Below, in pieces: positions 1 through 52,264 of a DNA stretch of 64,000 nt. Numbering within the stretch: the stretch's first letter is position 1; the number at the start of each line of letters is the position of its first letter. Under the pieces are notes generated by a model. It was not told where the DNA came from, ran no database searches, and worked only from the letters and a program-made list of their open reading frames with translations. Source of the stretch: Escherichia coli (GTDB taxonomy: Bacteria > Pseudomonadota > Gammaproteobacteria > Enterobacterales > Enterobacteriaceae); NCBI RefSeq assembly GCF_003790525.1, contig NZ_CP033635.1; one strand, given 5' to 3'. The translations under genes were made by a program, and so were the position numbers.

Positions 1-625
1 GCCGCAAGGTTTATTTTCTCTTGGTTCGCTGGAAAGCACCGCTGCGGTGCGCATTCCGGTCACGCTGGCGGAATTTAACCGTCGTTATCCCAAAATTCAG
101 TTTTCACTTTCCACCGGCCCTTCCGGCACTATGCTGGAAGGGGTGCTGGAGGGAAAACTGAATGCAGCGTTTATTGATGGGCCCATTAACCATACTGCCA
201 TTGACGGGATACCGGTGTACCGCGAGGAGCTGATGATCGTCACGCCACAAGGACATGCGCCAGTAACCCGCGCCAGTCAGGTAAATGGCAGTAACATTTA
301 TGCCTTCCGCGCCAATTGTTCGTATCGTCGCCACTTCGAGAGCTGGTTTCATGCTGATGGTGCCGCTCCGGGAACTATTCACGAGATGGAGTCGTATCAC
401 GGGATGTTGGCCTGTGTGGTCGCAGGAGCAGGTATTGCGCTTATTCCGCGCTCTATGCTGGAAAGTATGCCGGGGCATCACCAGGTTGAAGCGTGGCCGT
501 TAGCTGAGCAATGGCGTTGGTTAACAACCTGGCTGGTCTGGCGTCGCGGTGCGAAAACGCGTCCGCTCGAGGCATTTATTCAACTGCTGGATGTGCCTGA
601 CTCGGCAAAACAGGGTTACCAATGA
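1..625 (+). CDS. yneJ: LysR-family transcriptional regulator, C-terminal substrate-binding part (5' end outside window)
   Basis: ORF 47..625 continues open to window start; LysR effector-domain-like sequence; position upstream of yneK/sotB/marC. Confidence 0.6.
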
Positions 626-702
626 GCTATTTTTGATAGTTCTTGCGGCTAATATGCTCTATATAGTGATGTTCCGATGACTTATGACTATATGGAGCAA
701 AT

Positions 703-1819
703 ATGGTTACGCCAGTAAGCATCAGCAATTACATATCTCTTCCTGATGATTTTCCCGTACGTAATATTGCACCGCAGGTAAAAGAAGTTTTAAAGGATTT
801 CATTGATGCACTTAGTACAATAATATGTGATGAAGAATGGCGCACGTCTTTAAACATCAACTCAGCCACAAAAAAGATATTTAATAACCTTGACAACTTA
901 TCATATATTCAGAGGACTTCTTTTCGGGGGTAACGACACGCTATACAATGAAAAGGTTCAGTTTAAACTCACTTATCCCGTCAAGAATGGAAGACACAAA
1001 GAAAATATTGAATTTCAGGTAGTAATAAATTTAAGCCCTATTTATTTAGATAATTTCCGCCATGATGGGGAAATTAATATTTTTTGCGCTCCCAACCCAA
1101 AGCCTGTCACTATGGGGCGCGTATTTCAGACCGGCGTCGAGCGTGTGCTCTTTCTTTTTCTGAATGACTTTATAGAACAATTTCCAATAATCAACCCTGG
1201 CGTTCCTATCAAAAGAGCGCATACGCCACATATTGAACCCCTGCATCCGGATCACCATACCGCTGCAGATTACATACGCCAGTTTGATTTGCTTGTCCTG
1301 AATTTTATCTCTCGCGGTAATTTTGTCATACTCCCCCGATTATGGAATAACTCTGAGGTTCACAGATGGTTCGGGAATAAAGAACCTAACTTGCTCACCG
1401 CTATTCTCGACATAACGGACAGCGAATTAAAAGAGGATTTATTGCAAAGTCTGATGGATTCACTAGGTTCTAACAAACATGTACTACCCGAAGTCTGCAT
1501 CTGCTTTTTATCCCTTTTAGCAGAACAAGATTTTCCACATTTTCAGGAGTTGTTTTTATTTTTCGCCAATATGTTATTGCACTATCACCAATTTATGAAT
1601 CCCAATGAAAGTGATTTGATTGACGTGTTGATGCCAGCATCATTAAGTGATGATAAAATTATCAAACATATGGCGCGCAAGACCCTCAAACTTTTTGTAA
1701 AAAATGAAACGCCGCCAAAAGTTACTCATGAAGACCTGGTGAAAAACAGGCCTCGCTCCCCTGTCAGACCACCTATACCCGCAACTGCCAAAACGCCAGA
1801 CCTCCCTGAACGTCATTAA
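703..1819 (+). pseudogene. yneK: YneK-like protein split by a +1 frameshift in a G5 run near 926-930 (or sequencing error)
   Basis: ORFs 703..933 and 890..1819 overlap in different frames; removing one G joins ...RTSFRG to NDTLYNEK... Confidence 0.5.
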
Positions 1820-1968
1820 ACCGTGATGTGAACGACTCTCTGACGCGTGAAAGAATCAGCGTCAGAGAAACGGAAAACGCGATCCAGATCACAAATGCAT
1901 TGTATTCACATCATTAACCGTTTTAAGATCATTTCATCACTTTTTCGCAACTCACCCGATAATCTGTT

Positions 1969-3159
1969 ATGACAACAAACACTGTTTCCCGCAAAGTGGC
2001 GTGGCTACGGGTCGTTACGCTGGCAGTCGCCGCCTTCATCTTCAACACCACCGAATTTGTCCCAGTTGGCCTGCTCTCTGACATTGCGCAAAGTTTTCAC
2101 ATGCAAACCGCTCAGGTCGGCATTATGTTGACCATTTACGCATGGGTAGTAGCGCTAATGTCATTGCCTTTTATGTTAATGACCAGCCAGGTTGAACGGC
2201 GCAAATTACTGATCTGCCTGTTTGTGGTGTTTATTGCCAGCCACGTACTGTCGTTTTTATCGTGGAGTTTTACCGTTCTGGTGATCAGTCGCATTGGTGT
2301 GGCTTTTGCACATGCGATTTTCTGGTCGATTACGGCGTCTCTGGCGATCCGTATGGCTCCGGCCGGGAAGCGAGCACAGGCATTGAGTTTAATTGCCACC
2401 GGTACTGCACTGGCGATGGTCTTAGGTTTACCTCTCGGGCGCATTGTGGGGCAGTATTTCGGTTGGCGAATGACCTTCTTCGCGATTGGTATCGGGGCGC
2501 TTATCACCCTTTTGTGCCTGATTAAGTTACTTCCCTTACTGCCCAGTGAGCATTCCGGTTCGCTGAAAAGCCTCCCGCTATTATTCCGCCGCCCGGCATT
2601 GATGAGCATTTATTTGTTAACTGTGGTAGTTGTCACCGCCCATTACACGGCATACAGCTATATCGAGCCTTTTGTGCAAAACATTGCGGGATTCAGCGCC
2701 AACTTTGCCACGGCATTACTGTTATTACTCGGTGGTGCGGGCATTATTGGCAGCGTGATTTTCGGTAAACTGGGTAATCAGTATGCGTCTACGCTGGTAA
2801 GTACGGCGATTGCGCTGTTGCTGGTGTGCCTGGCACTGCTGCTACCTGCGGCGAACAGTGAAATACACCTCGGGGTGCTGAGTATTTTCTGGGGGATCGC
2901 GATGATGATCATCGGGCTTGGTATGCAGGTTAAAGTGCTGGCGCTGGCACCAGATGCTACCGACGTCGCGATGGCGCTATTCTCCGGGATATTTAATATT
3001 GGAATCGGCGCGGGTGCGTTGGTAGGTAATCAGGTCAGTCTGCACTGGTCAATGTCGATGATTGGTTATGTGGGCGCGGTGCCTGCTTTTGCCGCGTTAA
3101 TATGGTCAATCATCATTTTCCGCCGCTGGCCAGTGACACTCGAAGAACAGACGCAATAG
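1969..3159 (+). CDS. sotB: MFS sugar efflux transporter
   Basis: 396 aa multi-TM MFS protein; recognised SotB/YdeA sequence and position next to marC. Confidence 0.85.
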
Positions 3160-3183
3160 TTGAAAGGCCCATTCGGGCCTTTT

Positions 3184-3849
3184 TTAGTGGTACGTTTTAA
3201 TGATTTCCAGGATGCCGTTAATAATAAACTGCACCCCCATACATACCAGCAGGAATCCCATCAGACGGGAGATCGCTTCAATGCCCCCCTTACCCACCAG
3301 CCGCATAATTGCGCCAGAGCTGCGTAGACTTCCCCACAAAATAACCGCCACCAGGAAAAAGATCAGCGGCGGCGCAACCATCAGTACCCAATCAGCAAAG
3401 GTTGAACTCTGACGCACTGTGGAGGCCGAGCTAATAATCATCGCTATGGTTCCCGGACCCGCGGTACTTGGCATTGCCAGTGGTACAAAAGCAATATTGG
3501 CGCTGGGTTCATCTTCCAGCTCTTTCGACTTGCTTTTCGCTTCCGGTGAATCAATCGCTTTCTGTTGCGGAAAGAGCATCCGAAAACCGATAAACGCGAC
3601 GATTAAGCCGCCTGCAATTCGCAGACCGGGAATCGAAATGCCAAATGTATCCATCACCAGTTGCCCGGCGTAATACGCCACCATCATGATGGCAAATACG
3701 TACACCGAGGCCATCAACGACTGACGATTACGTTCAGCACTGTTCATGTTGCCTGCCAGGCCAAGAAATAACGCGACAGTTGTTAATGGGTTAGCTAACG
3801 GTAGTAACACCACCAGCCCCAGGCCTATTGCTTTAAACAAATCTAACAT
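3184..3849 (-). CDS. marC: MarC-family inner membrane protein
   Basis: 221 aa membrane protein divergent from marRAB. Confidence 0.85.
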
Positions 3850-3961
3850 TGGTGGTTGTTATCCTGTGTATCTGGTTTATCAGCGAAAAGTATAAGGGGT
3901 AAACAACGATAAAGTGTCACTCTTTAGCTAACCTTGCATCGCATTGACCAAAACTTGAACC

Positions 3962-4058
3962 GATTTAGCAAAACGTGGCATCGGTCAATTCATTCATTTG
4001 ACTTATACTTGCCTGGGCAATATTATCCCCTGCAACTAATTACTTGCCAGGGCAACTA
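3962..4058 (+). promoter_or_regulatory. marO operator/promoter: marbox-like element, -35 TTGACT (3998-4003), MarR palindromic sites I (about 4006-4023) and II (about 4041-4055)
   Basis: two near-identical palindromes TACTTGCC(T/A)GGGCAA directly upstream of marR; GATTTAGCAAAACGTGGCAT marbox-like sequence. Confidence 0.8.
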
Positions 4059-4060
4059 AT

Positions 4061-4495
4061 GTGAAAAGTACCAGCGATCTGTTCAATGAAATTATTCCAT
4101 TGGGTCGCTTAATCCATATGGTTAATCAGAAGAAAGATCGCCTGCTTAACGAGTATCTGTCTCCGCTGGATATTACCGCGGCACAGTTTAAGGTGCTCTG
4201 CTCTATCCGCTGCGCGGCGTGTATTACTCCGGTTGAACTGAAAAAGGTATTGTCGGTCGACCTGGGGGCGCTGACCCGTATGCTGGATCGCCTGGTCTGT
4301 AAAGGCTGGGTGGAAAGGTTGCCGAACCCGAATGACAAGCGCGGCGTACTGGTAAAACTTACCACCAGCGGCGCGGCAATATGTGAACAATGCCATCAAT
4401 TAGTTGGCCAGGACCTGCATCAAGAATTAACAAAAAACCTGACGGCGGACGAAGTGGCAACACTTGAGCATTTGCTTAAGAAAGTCCTGCCGTAA
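4061..4495 (+). CDS. marR: multiple antibiotic resistance repressor MarR (GTG start)
   Basis: 144 aa wHTH protein; recognised MarR sequence. Confidence 0.93.
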
Positions 4496-4515
4496 ACAAA
4501 AAAAGAGGTATGACG

Positions 4516-4899
4516 ATGTCCAGACGCAATACTGACGCTATTACCATTCATAGCATTTTGGACTGGATCGAGGACAACCTGGAATCGCCACTGTCACTGG
4601 AGAAAGTGTCAGAGCGTTCGGGTTACTCCAAATGGCACCTGCAACGGATGTTTAAAAAAGAAACCGGTCATTCATTAGGCCAATACATCCGCAGCCGTAA
4701 GATGACGGAAATCGCGCAAAAGCTGAAGGAAAGTAACGAGCCGATACTCTATCTGGCAGAACGATATGGCTTCGAGTCGCAACAAACTCTGACCCGAACC
4801 TTCAAAAATTACTTTGATGTTCCGCCACATAAATACCGGATGACCAATATGCAGGGCGAATCGCGCTTTTTACATCCATTAAATCATTACAACAGCTAG
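4516..4899 (+). CDS. marA: AraC/XylS-family activator MarA
   Basis: 127 aa from [24 protein letters not shown]; recognised MarA. Confidence 0.93.
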
Positions 4900-4930
4900 T
4901 TGATAACGTGACAACGTCACTGAGGCAATC

Positions 4931-5149
4931 ATGAAACCACTTTTATCCGCAATTGCAGCTGCGCTTATTCTCTTTTCCACGCAGGGCATTGCGGAACAAA
5001 CCACGCAGCCGGTTGTTACTTCCTGTGCCAATGTCGTGGTTGTTCCCCCATCGCAGGAACAACCACCGTTTGATTTAAATCACATGGGTACTGGCAGTGA
5101 TAAGTCGGATGCGCTCGGCGTGCCCTATTATAATCAACACGCTATGTAG
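4931..5149 (+). CDS. marB: MarB periplasmic protein
   Basis: 72 aa with signal peptide, directly after marA. Confidence 0.85.
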   Translation: MKPLLSAIAAALILFSTQGIAEQTTQPVVTSCANVVVVPPSQEQPPFDLNHMGTGSDKSDALGVPYYNQHAM

Positions 5150-5205
5150 TTATTGTCAGGCTCTGATCACAGAGCCTGACATCTCCGTAATATCTTTTTG
5201 AAGTC

Positions 5206-8346
<3,141 letters not shown>

Positions 8347-8398
8347 TTATCCTTAAGAGTGTAATAATTTCCTCCAGCTATCGCACTGGAGGAAAAAA

Positions 8399-8716
8399 TC
8401 AGGCATGGAGCTCTTTTCTTAATGAAATGATTTCCCTGGCTAAATCCTGGCATAATATTGCATTCATCAAATGATCCTGTGCATGTACCAGAATGAGATT
8501 AACTTTTATTTTGCCACAGCCTTCATCCTGACTAATTAACGCGGTCTGAATCTTATGCGCCTGAAGACAGGCGGATTCAGAACTGGCCATTAGCTGAGTT
8601 GCGCCCTGCCAGTCTTTTTGCCCGGCACAACGTATGGCTTCCATCGCATCAGAACGGGCCTGTCCTGCGTTGACCAGTAACTCCATAACAAGTTCTTCAT
8701 CTGCAAACATCAACAT
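8399..8716 (-). CDS. PTS lactose/cellobiose-family EIIA component
   Basis: 105 aa; ...LILVHAQDHLMNA... resembles ChbA-type IIA. Confidence 0.8.
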   Translation of the reverse strand: MLMFADEELVMELLVNAGQARSDAMEAIRCAGQKDWQGATQLMASSESACLQAHKIQTALISQDEGCGKIKVNLILVHAQDHLMNAILCQDLAREIISLRKELHA

Positions 8717-8737
8717 CTCCTTCCTGTGTAAATGGCA

Positions 8738-10060
8738 TTATCCGTTAGTTGTTAAGTTATTGACCTTGTTGGCGGCAATAACAAAAGGTAAATAGATCAT
8801 TGTCGCCACACCTAAACATAAAAAACCCACCAGTAACGCCAGCCAGTTTCCCCCGGTTCCGAGGAAAGCAATTAAAGGTCCGGGCGTAGTCCAGGGCACG
8901 GCATAAGCAACCGGTGGAATAATTTCCATCGAAACAAAGAAGTAACCAATGGCACAGTTAACAATAGGAACCATAATAAACGGCACCATCATGATGGGGT
9001 TAAGTACAATAGGAAGGCCGAACATTATCGGTTCATTGATATTGAAAATACCGGGGATAAATGACATTTTTGCCAGATCACGGTATTCCGCACGCTTAGA
9101 AGCGATAAAAATAGCCAACAATAACCCCAACGTCATACCTGAACCGCCGCAGTTGGCGAATGCATCATTAATAGAAGTCCAGGTAATCGGATATGGCGCG
9201 CCCCAGGTAGTGCCGTGTTGAGCGGCCCAGGAGAGATTCTCCAGATTAGCCTCAGAAAAAACAGTTTCTCGAATTGCCGAGGTGGTATTAGGTCCGTGGA
9301 TCCCCAGCACCCACAGGAAATTACCCACAGCCCCCAGGATAATTACCGCAAAGATATTCGTTCCCATATGTTTGAGCGGCGTCTGGATTAATGTGTAAAT
9401 GAGGTCGTTTAATCCTGCCGGGGATATCAGTGTCAGGCAATAATTAAGTGCGGAAAAGAACACCATGACAAAAAATATTGGCAATAAAACTTTAAATGAA
9501 CGCGCTACCGCAGGAGGTACAGCTGCCGGCATCGTGATGGTGATTTTGGGGTTTCGAGCTAAGCGACAAAATATTTCACTGGTGATCAGTGCAACGATAA
9601 CAGCAACAAATAACCCCTGCGCGCCGAGATATTTGGTCGTCAGGAATGCTTGCCCATCTATCATCTGATATGGCGTATATACAATAAAAAATGCTCCTAT
9701 TGCCGTTAATCCGCATAAAAGATCATCTTGCTCATAGCTAATCGCCATATTCCTGGCGACCAGGAAAGCAATCATAATTGACATGATATTTACAGAACCA
9801 TTCATTACCGGAGTAAAAATAGCTTGTGCTTTTTCAAGGTTGGGGAAAACGCTGTTCAGATGCAGCAGCCCGGCAATAAAGCCGTCGGGCGATAATATGG
9901 CAAAGTTAATTAATATAATTAATGAGCTTGCCATGATAATTGGAAACGTAAAAACGAATCCATCTCTCACCGCTGCAACATGTTTTTGTGAGTTTAACTT
10001 GATAGCAACTGGAACAAGAAAACGTTCCATTCCACGTTCGAATGAGGCCATTAATCCCAT
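8738..10060 (-). CDS. PTS lactose/cellobiose-family EIIC permease
   Basis: 440 aa polytopic membrane protein, ChbC-like. Confidence 0.8.
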   Translation of the reverse strand: MGLMASFERGMERFLVPVAIKLNSQKHVAAVRDGFVFTFPIIMASSLIILINFAILSPDGFIAGLLHLNSVFPNLEKAQAIFTPVMNGSVNIMSIMIAFLVARNMAISYEQDDLLCGLTAIGAFFIVYTPYQMIDGQAFLTTKYLGAQGLFVAVIVALITSEIFCRLARNPKITITMPAAVPPAVARSFKVLLPIFFVMVFFSALNYCLTLISPAGLNDLIYTLIQTPLKHMGTNIFAVIILGAVGNFLWVLGIHGPNTTSAIRETVFSEANLENLSWAAQHGTTWGAPYPITWTSINDAFANCGGSGMTLGLLLAIFIASKRAEYRDLAKMSFIPGIFNINEPIMFGLPIVLNPIMMVPFIMVPIVNCAIGYFFVSMEIIPPVAYAVPWTTPGPLIAFLGTGGNWLALLVGFLCLGVATMIYLPFVIAANKVNNLTTNG

Positions 10061-46276: not shown

Positions 46277-46558
46277 TTACCGCCGCAACCGTTCCGGCTT
46301 CTTCCACTGATAAGTGTTTTTCGCGCTCTCCTGATACATCGCCACGCGTCGACGGTATGCCAGCAACTCTAGTACTCTGATTCGTATGTCGCGCATATCC
46401 ACGCCGTTAAGCTCAATACCATCACGGCGCATTACATCAGCAACAACACGCACATAATTTTCGGCGGTCACGCTGTCCGGCTGCGTGGCCTGTTCGTCAT
46501 GCTGCTGGCTGATTCCGGTAACGCGGCGGATTAATCCCAGTAGTTCGACTTCTGTCAT
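46277..46558 (-). CDS. hypothetical protein (93 aa) adjacent to cos copy A; start taken at internal Met
   Basis: MTEVELLGLIRRVTGI...; the longer ORF 46277..46756 would read through the cos site and is judged an artefact. Confidence 0.4.
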   Translation of the reverse strand: MTEVELLGLIRRVTGISQQHDEQATQPDSVTAENYVRVVADVMRRDGIELNGVDMRDIRIRVLELLAYRRRVAMYQESAKNTYQWKKPERLRR

Positions 46559-46570
46559 TGTGCCCCCATC

Positions 46571-46648
46571 GCTCTGATAGTCTGGTGTCGTCGGGTCCTT
46601 TCCGGCATGTGGACCCGTTACGGGGCGTCGACCTCGCGCGTTTTCACT
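46571..46648 (+). other. lambda-like cos site copy A (cosQ-cosN-left-arm homology); cosN-like 12-mer GGGCGTCGACCT at 46602-46613
   Basis: GGGTCCTTTCCGG...GTTACG GGGCGTCGACCT CGCGCGTTTTCACTATTTATGAAAATTTTTCGG closely matches the recalled lambda cos junction (lambda cosN GGGCGGCGACCT). Confidence 0.75.
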
Positions 46649-46664
46649 ATTTATGAAAATTTTT

Positions 46665-46775
46665 CGGGATCCATGTCCGGTTTCTCTGCAAGTTAACCAT
46701 ATGAAAAATATAAAAACATGCTTTCCATGAACCGGACATGCGCAAAAAACAGACACTAAAACCGGACATCGAACC
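46665..46775. repeat. three CCGGACAT motifs in alternating orientation next to cos copy A (candidate cosB-like terminase-docking sites)
   Basis: ATGTCCGG near 46671, CCGGACATG near 46729, CCGGACATC near 46763. Confidence 0.45.
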
Positions 46776-46837: not shown

Positions 46838-47272
46838 TTACTGTTCTGTATCGGCTGATTGCTCCATGCTGGCACGGCGAACGCTTACGGCATGACGCCA
46901 CCCAGCCAGAAAGCCAGCCATTTTATTTCGTGCCTTGCTCACATCTTCCGGTGAATAGCCGTAAATATGCAAACCTTCATCAAATCGATGTTCTGTTTCT
47001 TCACTGGAGTACTCGTCACGCTCAGATGAAAGCAGCCTCGCAAACATAATTTTTTCCAGCGCACTGGTTTCTACGTGATATCCGATGGTCTGAAGATGGC
47101 TTTTACCTGAATACCAAAGCAATGTATGCCCGATGTGATAACCGCCAGACTTTCCGCGATCCGCATTAAGATACGGCATCCCCTGTTTGGTCCATGCGCG
47201 AATAGTGGTTCTGTTAACCTTGAAATGTTCAGCTATTTCCTGCTGACTTACAAAACAAGCTTTATCAATCAT
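46838..47272 (-). CDS. Nu1-like small terminase-type DNA-binding protein (wHTH N-terminus, divergent C-terminus); possibly a packaging-redirection factor
   Basis: VSQQEIAEHFKVNRTTIRAWTKQGMPYL aligns with lambda Nu1 VNKKQLADIFGASIRTIQNWQEQGMPVL; 144 aa versus 181 aa for Nu1. Confidence 0.65.
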   Translation of the reverse strand: MIDKACFVSQQEIAEHFKVNRTTIRAWTKQGMPYLNADRGKSGGYHIGHTLLWYSGKSHLQTIGYHVETSALEKIMFARLLSSERDEYSSEETEHRFDEGLHIYGYSPEDVSKARNKMAGFLAGWRHAVSVRRASMEQSADTEQ

Positions 47273-47334
47273 AATGTTACCTTAACTGCATGGTTAAATA
47301 TCAATCAAGTGGTGGTGGTGTCACCTTCACGGAA

Positions 47335-47405
47335 AAACGTCATAAATAGCGAAAACGTGCGAGGTCGACGCCCCGTAACGGGTCCACATGCCGGAAAGGA
47401 CCCGC
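47335..47405 (-). other. lambda-like cos site copy B, inverted relative to copy A; cosN-like 12-mer (reverse complement) at 47362-47373
   Basis: reverse complement reads GGGTCCTTTCCGGCATGTGGACCCGTTACG GGGCGTCGACCT CGCACGTTTTCGCTATTTATGA; lies about 70 bp upstream of the terS-like start in the lambda cosN-to-Nu1 orientation. Confidence 0.7.
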
Positions 47406-47428
47406 AAAAAAAGCCGGATTTCTCCGGC
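47406..47428 (-). terminator. intrinsic terminator after the capsid/decoration genes
   Basis: minus strand GCCGGAGAAATCCGGC followed by U7. Confidence 0.65.
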
Positions 47429-47502
47429 CTTGTCTCAGATGGTTTTCAGTATGCGATAGATGTCGCCGTCATCGCCCTGGTTTGTGCCATCGTTCCCCCT
47501 GC

Positions 47503-50659: not shown

Positions 50660-50870
50660 TCACCATCTCTCACTTTTACTACTCACTTTTTAAAGCGTCT
50701 CGCTTCGTCTCACTTGAGATTTTTGTGTTTTGTATGTGCATGTTTCATAAGTGTTTTTTCACTGCTCACTTTTGAGCATGTATACAGGTGAGAAAGTGAG
50801 TAATTGTGTTAATATTTTGTAAAAACCTCACCATTACTCACTTTTACTACTCACTTTTTACAGTGGTCCT
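50660..50870. repeat. iteron array (CTCACTT heptamers, two 24-bp direct repeats) - candidate replication origin of the element
   Basis: at least 6 direct and 2 inverted CTCACTT copies between 50669 and 50856; CTCACTTTTACTACTCACTTTTTA at 50669 and 50839; directly 3' of the primase-helicase gene. Confidence 0.6.
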
Positions 50871-52264
50871 ACATCATCACCATCAATGTAAATCACGGCG
50901 TCTTTTTCCAGTTTGGCTAACCATCGCCGCATATTTTTCACGTCATACCCAAGCCGTTTCATGTCATCACGTAACAGCGGGATCGTGCACTTGTCGCCGT
51001 TCTGTGTGCGTGAACGGATGCACCCCCATAGCGCGGTATGGTTTTCCGTCTTGTTGCCTGCCTCCTCGATGCGCTCCAGTTCAGCAGGGGCGCGGGGAAC
51101 GTCAATCACCACCATGGACACAATTTCTTCGCCATCTGTATCGGTGAACACCTCCACGCTTTTAAGGTCGTATGCACTCTCTTTTGGCTCCTCTGCGTCC
51201 TTCATCTTCGTACACGCCGCAACCAGTGCTGTAACGTCTGAATTTTCCCTGCTGATTCGGTACTCTGCATCAAGCGCGGCACGGAATGCACTGGAACCAC
51301 GCGCCCCCTTTGTTTCATCCTTGCCGGAATGGTGAACCACCAGCACCGTGGCCCCTGTGGCCTGCTTTATCGCGTCACACCCCTGGATAAATGCGCCCAT
51401 ATCACGGGAATCATTTTCATCATTCCCACCAAAGCAACGGGCCAGCGTGTCGATCACAATCAGCCGCACATTTTCGCCCGTTCTGCTCTTAACAAGTCCG
51501 GCAGTCCTGATAACCTGCTCCACATAGTCAGGCGATGCAGGGAAAACAGGCGCGTTAATGATGCACAAATCTGTAACCACCTTGTCGTGGGTTATCTCCC
51601 ACGCCTTAACGCGGCGTTTTACGCCCATGCTGCCTTCACCAGCGATATAGATAACCGCACCCTTACTTACCCTGCGGCCTCCCCATGCCATACCTGTGGC
51701 AACATGGCACGACCAGGAAATGGCGAGGAACGATTTATAAGAACCGCTGGCCCCGTAGGTGCTGCATAATGACTCAGCCGGAATAAGCCCCTTAATGACG
51801 TAGCTTTGCTGCGCATCGAATCCCTCAGAACCCCATGAGATGGGAAGTGTGATTTTTCGCTTTCCGCCATTCATGACCAGGCTTTCCCCTCTCTCCCATG
51901 TTTCCCGTAGTCGTGGTAGCTGGTCGCTCCAGTCCTCCAGCAGTTCGAAATTTTCAGAAAGTAGCCGCGCCTCCTGGACTCCGGCGATCGCCAGTTTTGT
52001 GGCAATGGTCAGCATCTGCATATCGTCCAGGTTTCCGGCGCGTATGACCTTTACCCTGTATCGTCCTTCATCAACAATCTGTAAGTTGTCCAGTTCGCTT
52101 AACTGATAACGGCCCAGATAAACCGGAGGGATGGGATCGCCTGCTTTTTTGGCCTGTGCAATCATGTAATGTTCTGCAAAGGAGTGAGCATTATCACCCG
52201 CAAAAATAACCGCCTCAGTGTGTTTATCTTTCGGTAACAGTTTTACGTTCGGTGCAAGTTTCAT
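50858..52264 (-). CDS. replication initiator: primase-associated N-domain + RecA-like/AAA helicase (pri-rep type)
   Basis: 468 aa; Walker A GASGSYKS, Walker B LIVIDTL, VLVVHHSGKD; C-terminal wH-like tail. Confidence 0.8.
   Translation of the reverse strand: MKLAPNVKLLPKDKHTEAVIFAGDNAHSFAEHYMIAQAKKAGDPIPPVYLGRYQLSELDNLQIVDEGRYRVKVIRAGNLDDMQMLTIATKLAIAGVQEARLLSENFELLEDWSDQLPRLRETWERGESLVMNGGKRKITLPISWGSEGFDAQQSYVIKGLIPAESLCSTYGASGSYKSFLAISWSCHVATGMAWGGRRVSKGAVIYIAGEGSMGVKRRVKAWEITHDKVVTDLCIINAPVFPASPDYVEQVIRTAGLVKSRTGENVRLIVIDTLARCFGGNDENDSRDMGAFIQGCDAIKQATGATVLVVHHSGKDETKGARGSSAFRAALDAEYRISRENSDVTALVAACTKMKDAEEPKESAYDLKSVEVFTDTDGEEIVSMVVIDVPRAPAELERIEEAGNKTENHTALWGCIRSRTQNGDKCTIPLLRDDMKRLGYDVKNMRRWLAKLEKDAVIYIDGDDVGPL

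Follow-up and report, generated by a model that had tools for sequence, protein, structure and literature searches.

Phage-inducible chromosomal islands (PICIs) spread virulence and resistance genes, and the phages that mobilize them are set by cos recognition. The DNA analyzed here, a stretch of 64,000 nucleotides from Escherichia coli (contig NZ_CP033635.1; hereafter referred to as the window), contains an island with two cos copies, and a triplet of short repeats is found beside one of them, cos copy A. The question raised by this locus is which protein reads the repeats and what they do for the island. A sequence-only reading had proposed that they form a novel cosB by which the Nu1-like protein of the island, or a helper TerS complex, selects satellite over helper DNA.

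An EcCICFT073-type island with two inverted cos copies

E. coli PKF11 has a locus that is 99.8 to 100% identical to that of the window, consisting of an island of 11 to 12 kb inserted in tqsA. The order of features in the PKF11 island is integrase, AlpA, Icd-like, DUF4222, RepA-type helicase, SSB, PerC, major capsid, decoration, cos copy B, a 144-aa open reading frame (ORF), the repeats, cos copy A, and small ORFs. EcCICFT073 (PMC6092414, PMC6739421) similarly contains int, alpA, replication genes, capsid and decoration genes, cos1, rpp, and cos2, with cos2 antisense to and downstream of rpp and convergent with cos1. The two islands differ in that (i) EcCICFT073 is adjacent to phoQ, whereas the island of the window is in tqsA, and (ii) the latter has a T at cohesive-end base 6 and identical cosQ sequences in both cos copies and lacks the 137-aa gene before cos1. 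The island of the window is an EcCICFT073-type PICI integrated in tqsA.

The 144-aa protein matches the RppC structure (PDB 6hlk) with E=4e-32, with conservation of the DNA-reading residues R21, T22, R25, and K29, and its N terminus is identical to the printed RppA sequence (Fig. S1 in Fillol-Salom et al. 2019, PMC6739421). The Nu1-like protein of the island is therefore Rpp, the redirecting phage packaging protein. The features of the cos region, except for the repeats, are as follows.

46277..46558, - strand: 93-aa ORF, a phage-family protein beside the cosQ side of cos copy A; full-length match to phrog_1561 (E=1e-54), hypothetical in PKF11 and CFT073
46592..46603, + strand: CGGGTCCTTTCC, element on the cosQ side of cos copy A; phage 21 has the same sequence at -30..-19, annotated as its "R4" box
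46623..46634, + strand: cosN core GGGCGTCGACCT of cos copy A (EcCICFT073 cos2), lambda-like, with T instead of G at cohesive-end base 6
46652..46666, + strand: I2-like segment TATGAAAATTTTTCG at +30..+44, the same position as I2 of phage 21 (TATGAAAATTTTTCA), with 14/15 bases matching
46694..46706, - strand: IHF-like I1 candidate TTTCATATGGTTA at +72..84, matching 7/9 consensus positions of WATCAANNNNTTR; position and strand as for I1 of lambda and phage 21
46838..47272, - strand: rpp, coding for an RppA-like protein of 144 aa; it runs in the orientation of cos copy B and is antisense to cos copy A
47192..47335, - strand: region homologous to the Rpp-responsive cosB of EcCICFT073 cos1, +39..+182 of copy B; bounds taken from the chimera primers phi80quimera-cosB-3m and -4c
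47362..47373, - strand: cosN core of cos copy B (EcCICFT073 cos1), inverted with respect to copy A

Both cos sequences of EcCICFT073 are printed in Fig. S1A of Fillol-Salom et al. 2019 (Mol Cell, PMC6739421), where cos1 continues CCGTGAAGGTGACACCACCACC... up to the rpp start codon and cos2 continues CGGGATCCATGTCCGGTTTCTC...GAACCGGACATGCGC...AAACCGGACATCG. Comparison with this figure and with the CFT073 chromosome identifies copy B as the published cos1 and copy A as the published cos2. Copy A is identical to cos2 from +13 to +182, all three motifs included, and within cosN it differs only at cohesive-end base 6. It has all the characteristics of an EcCICFT073-type cos2, namely, a second cos that is inverted relative to cos1, located downstream of rpp and beside the phrog_1561 ORF, and that has the published sequence. 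The original articles referred to cosB as "completely divergent" and identified no R elements or phage counterpart (PMC6092414, PMC6739421). The proposed cosB is thus not novel as a sequence, since it was already in print in the above figure as EcCICFT073 cos2; apparently undescribed are the ATGTCCGGTT R sequence of this site, defined below, and the TerS specificity class that goes with it.

Two further observations concern the history of this region. (i) The segment from cosQ to cosN is identical in both inverted copies (46592-46634 and 47362-47404), including the unusual T at cohesive-end base 6 (GGGCGTCGACCT); cosQ differs between the two cos copies of CFT073, and both copies of KE51 have a cos2-type cosQ. 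These identity patterns in the window, CFT073, and KE51 suggest gene conversion or inversion between the inverted copies. (ii) The 137-aa gene that is located between the decoration gene and cos1 in CFT073, GPEC874, LH50-c, and KE51, and that is annotated once as a head-tail connector, is missing from the window, where a remnant of about 130 bp (47374-47502) retains its start and last codons.

Three 10-mers at cosB-like positions beside cos copy A

Within the 64 kb of the window, the 8-mer CCGGACAT is found at three sites only, 46673-46680 (-), 46732-46739 (+), and 46762-46769 (+), all of them within the interval 46665-46775 reported earlier. The motifs noted in the sequence-only reading are thus real, spanning +51 to +147 from cosN. 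The conserved repeat unit is longer, namely, the 10-mer ATGTCCGGTT (AACCGGACAT on the opposite strand), which is found at the following positions, with offsets counted from cosN base 1 of copy A.

46673-46682, + strand: M1, ATGTCCGGTT, R3-equivalent candidate TerS-binding element; +51..+60, forward, within the R3 window of both phage 21 (+50..65) and lambda
46730-46739, - strand: M2, R2-equivalent candidate element, ATGTCCGGTT on the - strand (AACCGGACAT on +); +108..+117, inverted with respect to M1; R2 of phage 21 is at +107..122
46760-46769, - strand: M3, third element; +138..+147, inverted, oriented as M2; homology to phage cosB stops just past it

The number of 8-mers is uninformative by itself because about 0.5 such triplets, of whatever 8-mer, are to be expected in 64 kb; Markov simulations gave a mean of 0.54 clusters within 120 bp per 64 kb, with at least one in 42% of the windows. 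The 10-mer triplet, in turn, is rare (2/600 simulations; analytic expectation of 0.0014 per 64 kb), and these figures were computed before counting its exact R3/R2 placement beside cosN. The weight of the evidence lies in the 10-mer plus its position, not in the 8-mer count. A search for the whole architecture in 298 Gb of species-representative genomes returned 13 chance matches, all of them in unrelated taxa; there is therefore no cross-genus series for covariation.

Both cos copies were inspected for the CGTTTCC-type R element of lambda, and none was found beside either of them, as the sequence-only reading had stated. The array nevertheless resembles the cosB of lambda and phage 21, since it is located right beside cosN and has elements at about 50 to 60 and, inverted, at about 108 to 118, with an IHF-like site at about 72 to 85. 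The individual sub-sites compare as follows; those of phage 21 are taken from the GenBank annotation (M81255), and the background on the lambda array is Feiss laboratory work, summarized in PMC9026076.

R3: M1 at 51-60, forward; lambda 53-59, forward; phage 21 annotated at 50-65
I1 (IHF): IHF-like site with a 7/9 match at 72-84; lambda I1 on the same strand and at the same position; phage 21 annotated at 72-86
R2: M2 at 108-117, inverted; lambda 114-120, inverted; phage 21 annotated at 107-122
R1: M3 at 138-147, inverted; lambda 155-161, forward; phage 21 annotated at 150-165

The spacing from R3 to R2 is 57 bp for M1-M2 (51 to 108), compared to 61 bp in lambda and 57 to 59 bp in phage 21, and the TAAC..T.TG core of the IHF-like I1 candidate is invariant in the cosB alignment. 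There are also clear differences. (i) The R sequence is ATGTCCGGTT, in contrast to CGTTTCC in lambda and (C/G)(A/G)TGTCGG in phage 21. (ii) M3 does not correspond to R1: it is 12 bp nearer to M2 than R1 of phage 21 is to R2 and has the opposite orientation to R1. A lambda-type R1 has the orientation of R3 and is located about 40 bp past R2, whereas M3 is oriented as M2 and is 30 bp away. The position of the terS start, in turn, is again similar, being +196 in phages that carry the ATGTCCGGTT array, 191 in lambda, and 189 in phage 21.

The array is the native cosB of a class of lambdoid phages

The stretch from cosQ to M3 is 92.7% identical in a prophage of strain IAI39 and 94.4% identical in the PhiR12 phages (PhiR12_1), where the module is located directly upstream of terS-terL-portal; the similarity to the island stops right past M3. 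The module is also native to prophages of O157:H7 and CFT073, and in the O157:H7 prophage the motifs are at +51, +110, and +140, followed by terS at +196. All three 10-mers are kept in a divergent prophage with another cosN core (GGGCGGGAGCGG) and drifted spacers. When cos2 is compared to these helper-type cos sites, the M1 core is identical in PhiR12_1, IAI39, and the potB prophage of CFT073, and M2 and M3 are identical in PhiR12_1 and IAI39 and have one variant base each in the potB prophage. A fourth, forward element, ATGACCGG at +146, is present in most phages and degenerate in the island.

Among 5,426 complete E. coli genomes, the ATGTCCGGTT-class cosB is present in 1,184 (~21%), and cosB together with a WP_000235436-like terS is present in 1,163, whereas the island junction (cosB to the rpp 3' end) is found in 62. 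A scan of IMG/VR for the bare architecture resulted in 121 matches, in 117 of which M1 followed cosN at a distance of exactly 50 bp. In 99 cases the array was followed by a WP_000235436-like TerS, and in none by another type of TerS. The remainder comprised 18 matches in islands (9 with antisense rpp, 8 without rpp, and 1 chimera), 2 chance matches in unrelated GC-rich contigs, and 2 with flanks too short to classify. All 99 TerS-followed phage cases thus belong to one class, whereas only antisense rpp follows the array in the island.

An initial conservation test that used motif-anchored loci was discarded as circular, since these loci had been chosen by exact 8-mers. The final test set consisted of 80 IMG/VR loci retrieved by the TerS protein and not by the motif, which provided 44 distinct upstream sequences. 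Mean entropy was 0.096 in the motif columns and 0.292 in the spacers (permutation p=0.028), and a minor allele of at least 10% was observed in 1/30 motif columns as against 17/90 spacer columns. M1 was invariant across all 44 sequences, and the CCGGACAT core of M3 was invariant in the 43/44 sequences not truncated there, its 5' AA flank alone being variable. Conservation across relatives, the check that had been proposed for the motif, was seen in phage loci as well as in the island copies examined. What the data establish is what the motifs are, where and in which orientation they lie, how well they are conserved, and that they are tied exclusively to one TerS class.

The cognate TerS, WP_000235436, has 169 aa, and its match to Pfam Phage_Nu1 covers only aa 49-150, which indicates that its DNA-binding domain differs from those of Nu1 and gp1. 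In accordance, this N-terminal domain differs from Nu1, phage 21 gp1, and Rpp, and is combined with a Nu1-like C-terminal body; PHROGs places the whole protein in the same small-terminase family. In this N-terminal domain, the TerS of the ATGTCCGGTT class is thus unlike the TerS of lambda and phage 21, and it differs from that of lambda throughout residues 1-75.

The idea of a cosB-like site is therefore sustained by the R3/R2 positions and by the single TerS class found in 99/99 cases. The idea of a site distinct from that of the helper is not, since the same cos-cosB module is native to lambdoid phages and prophages in about 21% of the complete E. coli genomes and thus cannot discriminate satellite DNA from the DNA of those phages. 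Our data also provide concrete R-element sequences for two lambdoid terminase specificity classes, this one and the GGTTGTTGT class introduced below, that are not described in the searchable literature.

A role of the triplet as a replication iteron or operator was considered and ruled out, since in phages the very same array separates cosN from terS. The sole other 10-mer triplet in the window is AAAGTGAGTA at 50669-50857, directly 3' of the gene for the RepA-type helicase (50858-52264, -). This is where PICI replication origins have been reported, and the AAAGTGAGTA repeats are probably ori iterons.

Rpp acts through cos1

The published experiments on EcCICFT073 bear directly on whether Rpp uses the triplet (PMC6092414, PMC6739421). 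Both cos1 and cos2 work as cos sites on plasmids, and lambda- and phi80-mediated transfer needs cos1 but not cos2. The transfer of cos1 plasmids is raised by RppA, and cosB swaps confined this response to the cosB of cos1. Murialdo and Feiss (2022; PMC9026076) dealt with cos1 only and proposed a single R3-PICI at bp 48-65, with no mention of cos2 or the motif. In our literature search for follow-up work on cos2, the only item beyond PMC6092414 and PMC6739421 was a review on cos1 alone.

The two cosB regions share the island, cosQ, and cosN, and both are of non-lambda type (PMC9026076), but their layouts differ. The layout of cos1 is N15-like: it contains no repeats, and only one R3 (GGTGACACCACCACCACT) has been proposed. 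Co-oriented rpp follows, and cos1 is experimentally Rpp dependent. The CCGGACAT array, in contrast, has three repeats, is phage derived, and is not Rpp responsive, the response data being those of the near-identical EcCICFT073 cos2. The triplet is located beyond the 3' end of rpp and antisense to it, and the co-oriented arrangement from cosN to rpp exists only at copy B. With respect to R3-PICI (bp 48-65 / 55-63), positions 48-65 on the cos A side read ATCCATGTCCGGTTTCTC, and GGTGACACCACCACCACT is present only on the copy B side. Conversely, no ATGTCCGGTT-like sequence was detected on the cos1 (copy B) side with up to 2 mismatches allowed.

These data permit an evaluation of the proposal that the triplet is a satellite-specific cosB bound by Rpp, alone or with helper TerS, by which island DNA is chosen over helper DNA. 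Rpp has a Nu1-like winged-helix DNA-binding domain, the motifs are at R3- and R2-like positions, and the literature contains no biochemical mapping of the precise Rpp site, all of which would be compatible with such a role. However, the published swaps tied the RppA response solely to the cos1 cosB, that of copy B upstream of rpp, and cos1, not cos2, was required for transfer. Furthermore, the same array is the native cosB of phages without rpp and is kept in islands that lack rpp, and the cos1 cosB that Rpp does use has no related motif. For a sequence nearly identical to that of the window, use of the triplet by Rpp is thus contradicted both by the cosB swaps and by the absence of ATGTCCGGTT (≤2 mismatches) at cos1. 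We consider this proposal highly improbable and largely refuted by the published cosB swaps; the array is neither a satellite-specific new cosB nor the target of the Nu1-like protein. What survives of the earlier idea is predicted recognition by a helper TerS, and for one particular TerS class only.

A putative Rpp-independent packaging route

The triplet is probably the TerS-binding R array of a phage-type cosB of the WP_000235436-like class, captured by the island as cos2, so that a helper of this class would package the island without Rpp. In the proposed mechanism, the unmodified TerS dimer of an active helper of this class would dock on M1 and M2 across an IHF-induced bend and would place TerL on cosN (46623-46634), and packaging would proceed toward the + direction of the window. 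Rpp would not be needed because the island cosB equals the helper cosB. The predicted binding by this TerS class, the predicted independence from Rpp, and the putative benefit to the island are drawn by analogy with the lambda and phage 21 systems.

Cos copy B (cos1) together with Rpp would serve helpers with TerS of the lambda, phi80, or 21 type. The single substitutions E65K, Y50N, V3I, and A55V in lambda TerS each abolish the interaction with Rpp, and HK97, which has an unrelated TerS, is insensitive to Rpp. Judging from these substitutions and from the differences in residues 1-75, Rpp may be unable to act on TerS of the ATGTCCGGTT class. In EcCICFT073, deletion of cos2 resulted in more lambda- and phi80-mediated transfer, an increase that was significant for lambda (PMC6092414, PMC6739421). 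cos2 is thus costly with noncognate helpers, yet it is retained, and such a division of helpers between cos1 and cos2 would explain its retention despite the lowering of lambda transfer. The presence of two cos sites in EcCICFT073-type islands could thus be explained in concrete and testable terms, and, if this is true, Rpp would be only half of the packaging story. If cos2 is cognate to a TerS class present in about one-fifth of the complete E. coli genomes, including O157:H7 and uropathogenic strains, the helper range would be far wider than the lambda, phi80, and phage 4 tested so far.

There is precedent in SaPIbov5 and SaPIbov4, which carry helper cos sites, SaPIbov4 having two (as cited in PMC6092414 and PMC5052747). 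As in these elements, the cos of the island, including its specificity part, matches that of a phage, and the SaPIs are packaged by the helper terminase without a specificity factor of their own. Unlike in the SaPIs, the mimic cos is next to a second, Rpp-dependent cos for other helpers, and the likeness proposed here is one of sequence.

The array could also be a decoy, by which the island would show a helper cosB to soak up or misdirect the terminase of this class and thereby lower helper yield, with packaging not its main role. Interference with helper packaging is general among PICIs. The TerS of the ATGTCCGGTT class differs across the region where single substitutions abolish Rpp binding, so that Rpp may fail and another route of interference would be useful, and cutting at both convergent cos sites would release a 750-bp fragment. 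On the other hand, if a replicating concatemer bears a working cos together with a cognate cosB, packaging would simply follow, and competition and packaging are indistinguishable from sequence. We regard a decoy function as very unlikely.

Co-resident prophages of the cognate class

If cos2 is the entry point for helpers of the WP_000235436-like class, as favored above, prophages of this class in island-bearing strains are of interest. In CFT073, a complete lambdoid prophage with a cos2-class cosB and WP_000235436 occupies potB (locus L215, NC_004431 1340000-1386000; 8534-9238). It is located about 5 kb upstream of the island EcCICFT073, and its cosB matches cos2 at 127/147 positions. The same pairing was found in KE51, where a full lambdoid prophage of the class lies about 5 kb from the island, and PKF11 has a second cosB copy of the class elsewhere in its chromosome, outside the island. 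In total, co-residence of islands and cognate prophages was seen in 36/49 cases, compared to a background of about 21%, but this enrichment is confounded by clonal ancestry and is not strong evidence because many of the genomes are clonal relatives of CFT073.

The 2018 prophage-deletion table for CFT073 (PMC6092414) covers prophages 1, 2, 4, and 5, and prophage 3 is not among them. Deletion of prophage 4 alone reduced island transfer to <1 transductant. The potB prophage stays in this mutant and is therefore not a sufficient helper in CFT073; possible reasons are a defective prophage, failure of the prophage to induce the island or to infect the recipients, and disuse of cos2. Located beside EcCICFT073 and absent from the deletions in the 2018 table, the potB prophage is nevertheless a specific candidate helper of the model strain that has been overlooked.

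The loss of transfer despite a remaining prophage of the cos2 class, as well as the increased lambda- and phi80-mediated transfer upon cos2 deletion, would also fit the idea of a relic. Accordingly, cos2 and its cosB would have been gained by prophage recombination at the shared cosQ-cosN and would have no selected role, being neutral or mildly harmful. The sister islands provide further evidence on both sides.

The cos2 position is modular in sister islands

The island of GPEC874 has the same rpp, cos1, and cos2 cosQ-cosN, but its cos2 cosB contains instead a GGTTGTTGT triplet (forward, inverted, forward). No sequence of the phage collection matched this cosB type beyond cosN; it was found instead in E. 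coli prophages, to which it is native, and is present in 299 of the 5,426 genomes. A prophage of the O121:H19 strain 16-9255 (L094, 2469-3203) carries three copies of GGTTGTTGT and a strong IHF-like TTGATA site upstream of terS, and its TerS has a third kind of N-terminal domain, whereas the C-terminal half is identical to that of the ATGTCCGGTT-class TerS. The islands of CEA601S (L090, 1469-2004) and B771 (L092, 1169-1704) and those on eight IMG/VR contigs (e.g., L103 and L117) have no rpp. They contain only two convergent cos sites, one with a CCGGACAT-type and one with a GGTTGTTGT-type cosB, and an rpp 3'-end remnant between them. The data on GPEC874, O121:H19, and the rpp-less islands thus indicate that R triplets and TerS DNA-binding domains change together, as modules, in four classes (lambda, 21, ATGTCCGGTT, and GGTTGTTGT), and, as judged by sequence, islands of the EcCICFT073 type have captured at least two of the four cosB/TerS classes.

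In the island-context copies examined, the three cores and their spacing are all kept, even where the spacers have changed, which argues against a relic. This conservation could, however, reflect repeated recombination with phage cos sites and not selection in the island. Clear traces point to frequent exchange between cos copies by recombination, inversion, and gene conversion, as well as to swapping of cosB modules, all of which favors the relic explanation. In addition, the cosN core beside the intact CCGGACAT motifs is mutated (GGGCGTCGAACCCGCG) in the LH50-c island (L091, ~1168-1185), so that this cos2 copy may be inactivated. Other data speak against a relic: the same island position is held by two different phage-type cosB modules, the rpp-less islands depend on phage-type cos sites alone, which is hard to square with junk, and an element that carries a cost tends to be lost if it brings no gain elsewhere. 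On balance, we think it rather unlikely that cos2 is a relic.

A captured phage-type cosB thus remains the preferred interpretation, and it can tentatively be extended to two parallel packaging strategies. In this model, which is attractive but somewhat short of probable, cos1 and Rpp would be used with TerS of the lambda, 21, and phi80 types, and cos2 would be an exchangeable "helper-mimic" cassette, the cosB of which is swapped by recombination to fit TerS classes beyond the reach of Rpp, namely, ATGTCCGGTT, GGTTGTTGT, or, in the rpp-less islands, both.

The chimera among the IMG/VR matches is found on an IMGVR_UViG contig (L179). About 30 bp downstream of its CCGGACAT array, an ORF combines the first 9 codons of a ATGTCCGGTT-class TerS (VATQTEVAR) with an in-frame C-terminal half of Rpp that starts at about residue 78. 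This ORF is preceded by a phage-like cosB and followed by an inverted GGTTGTTGT-type cos.
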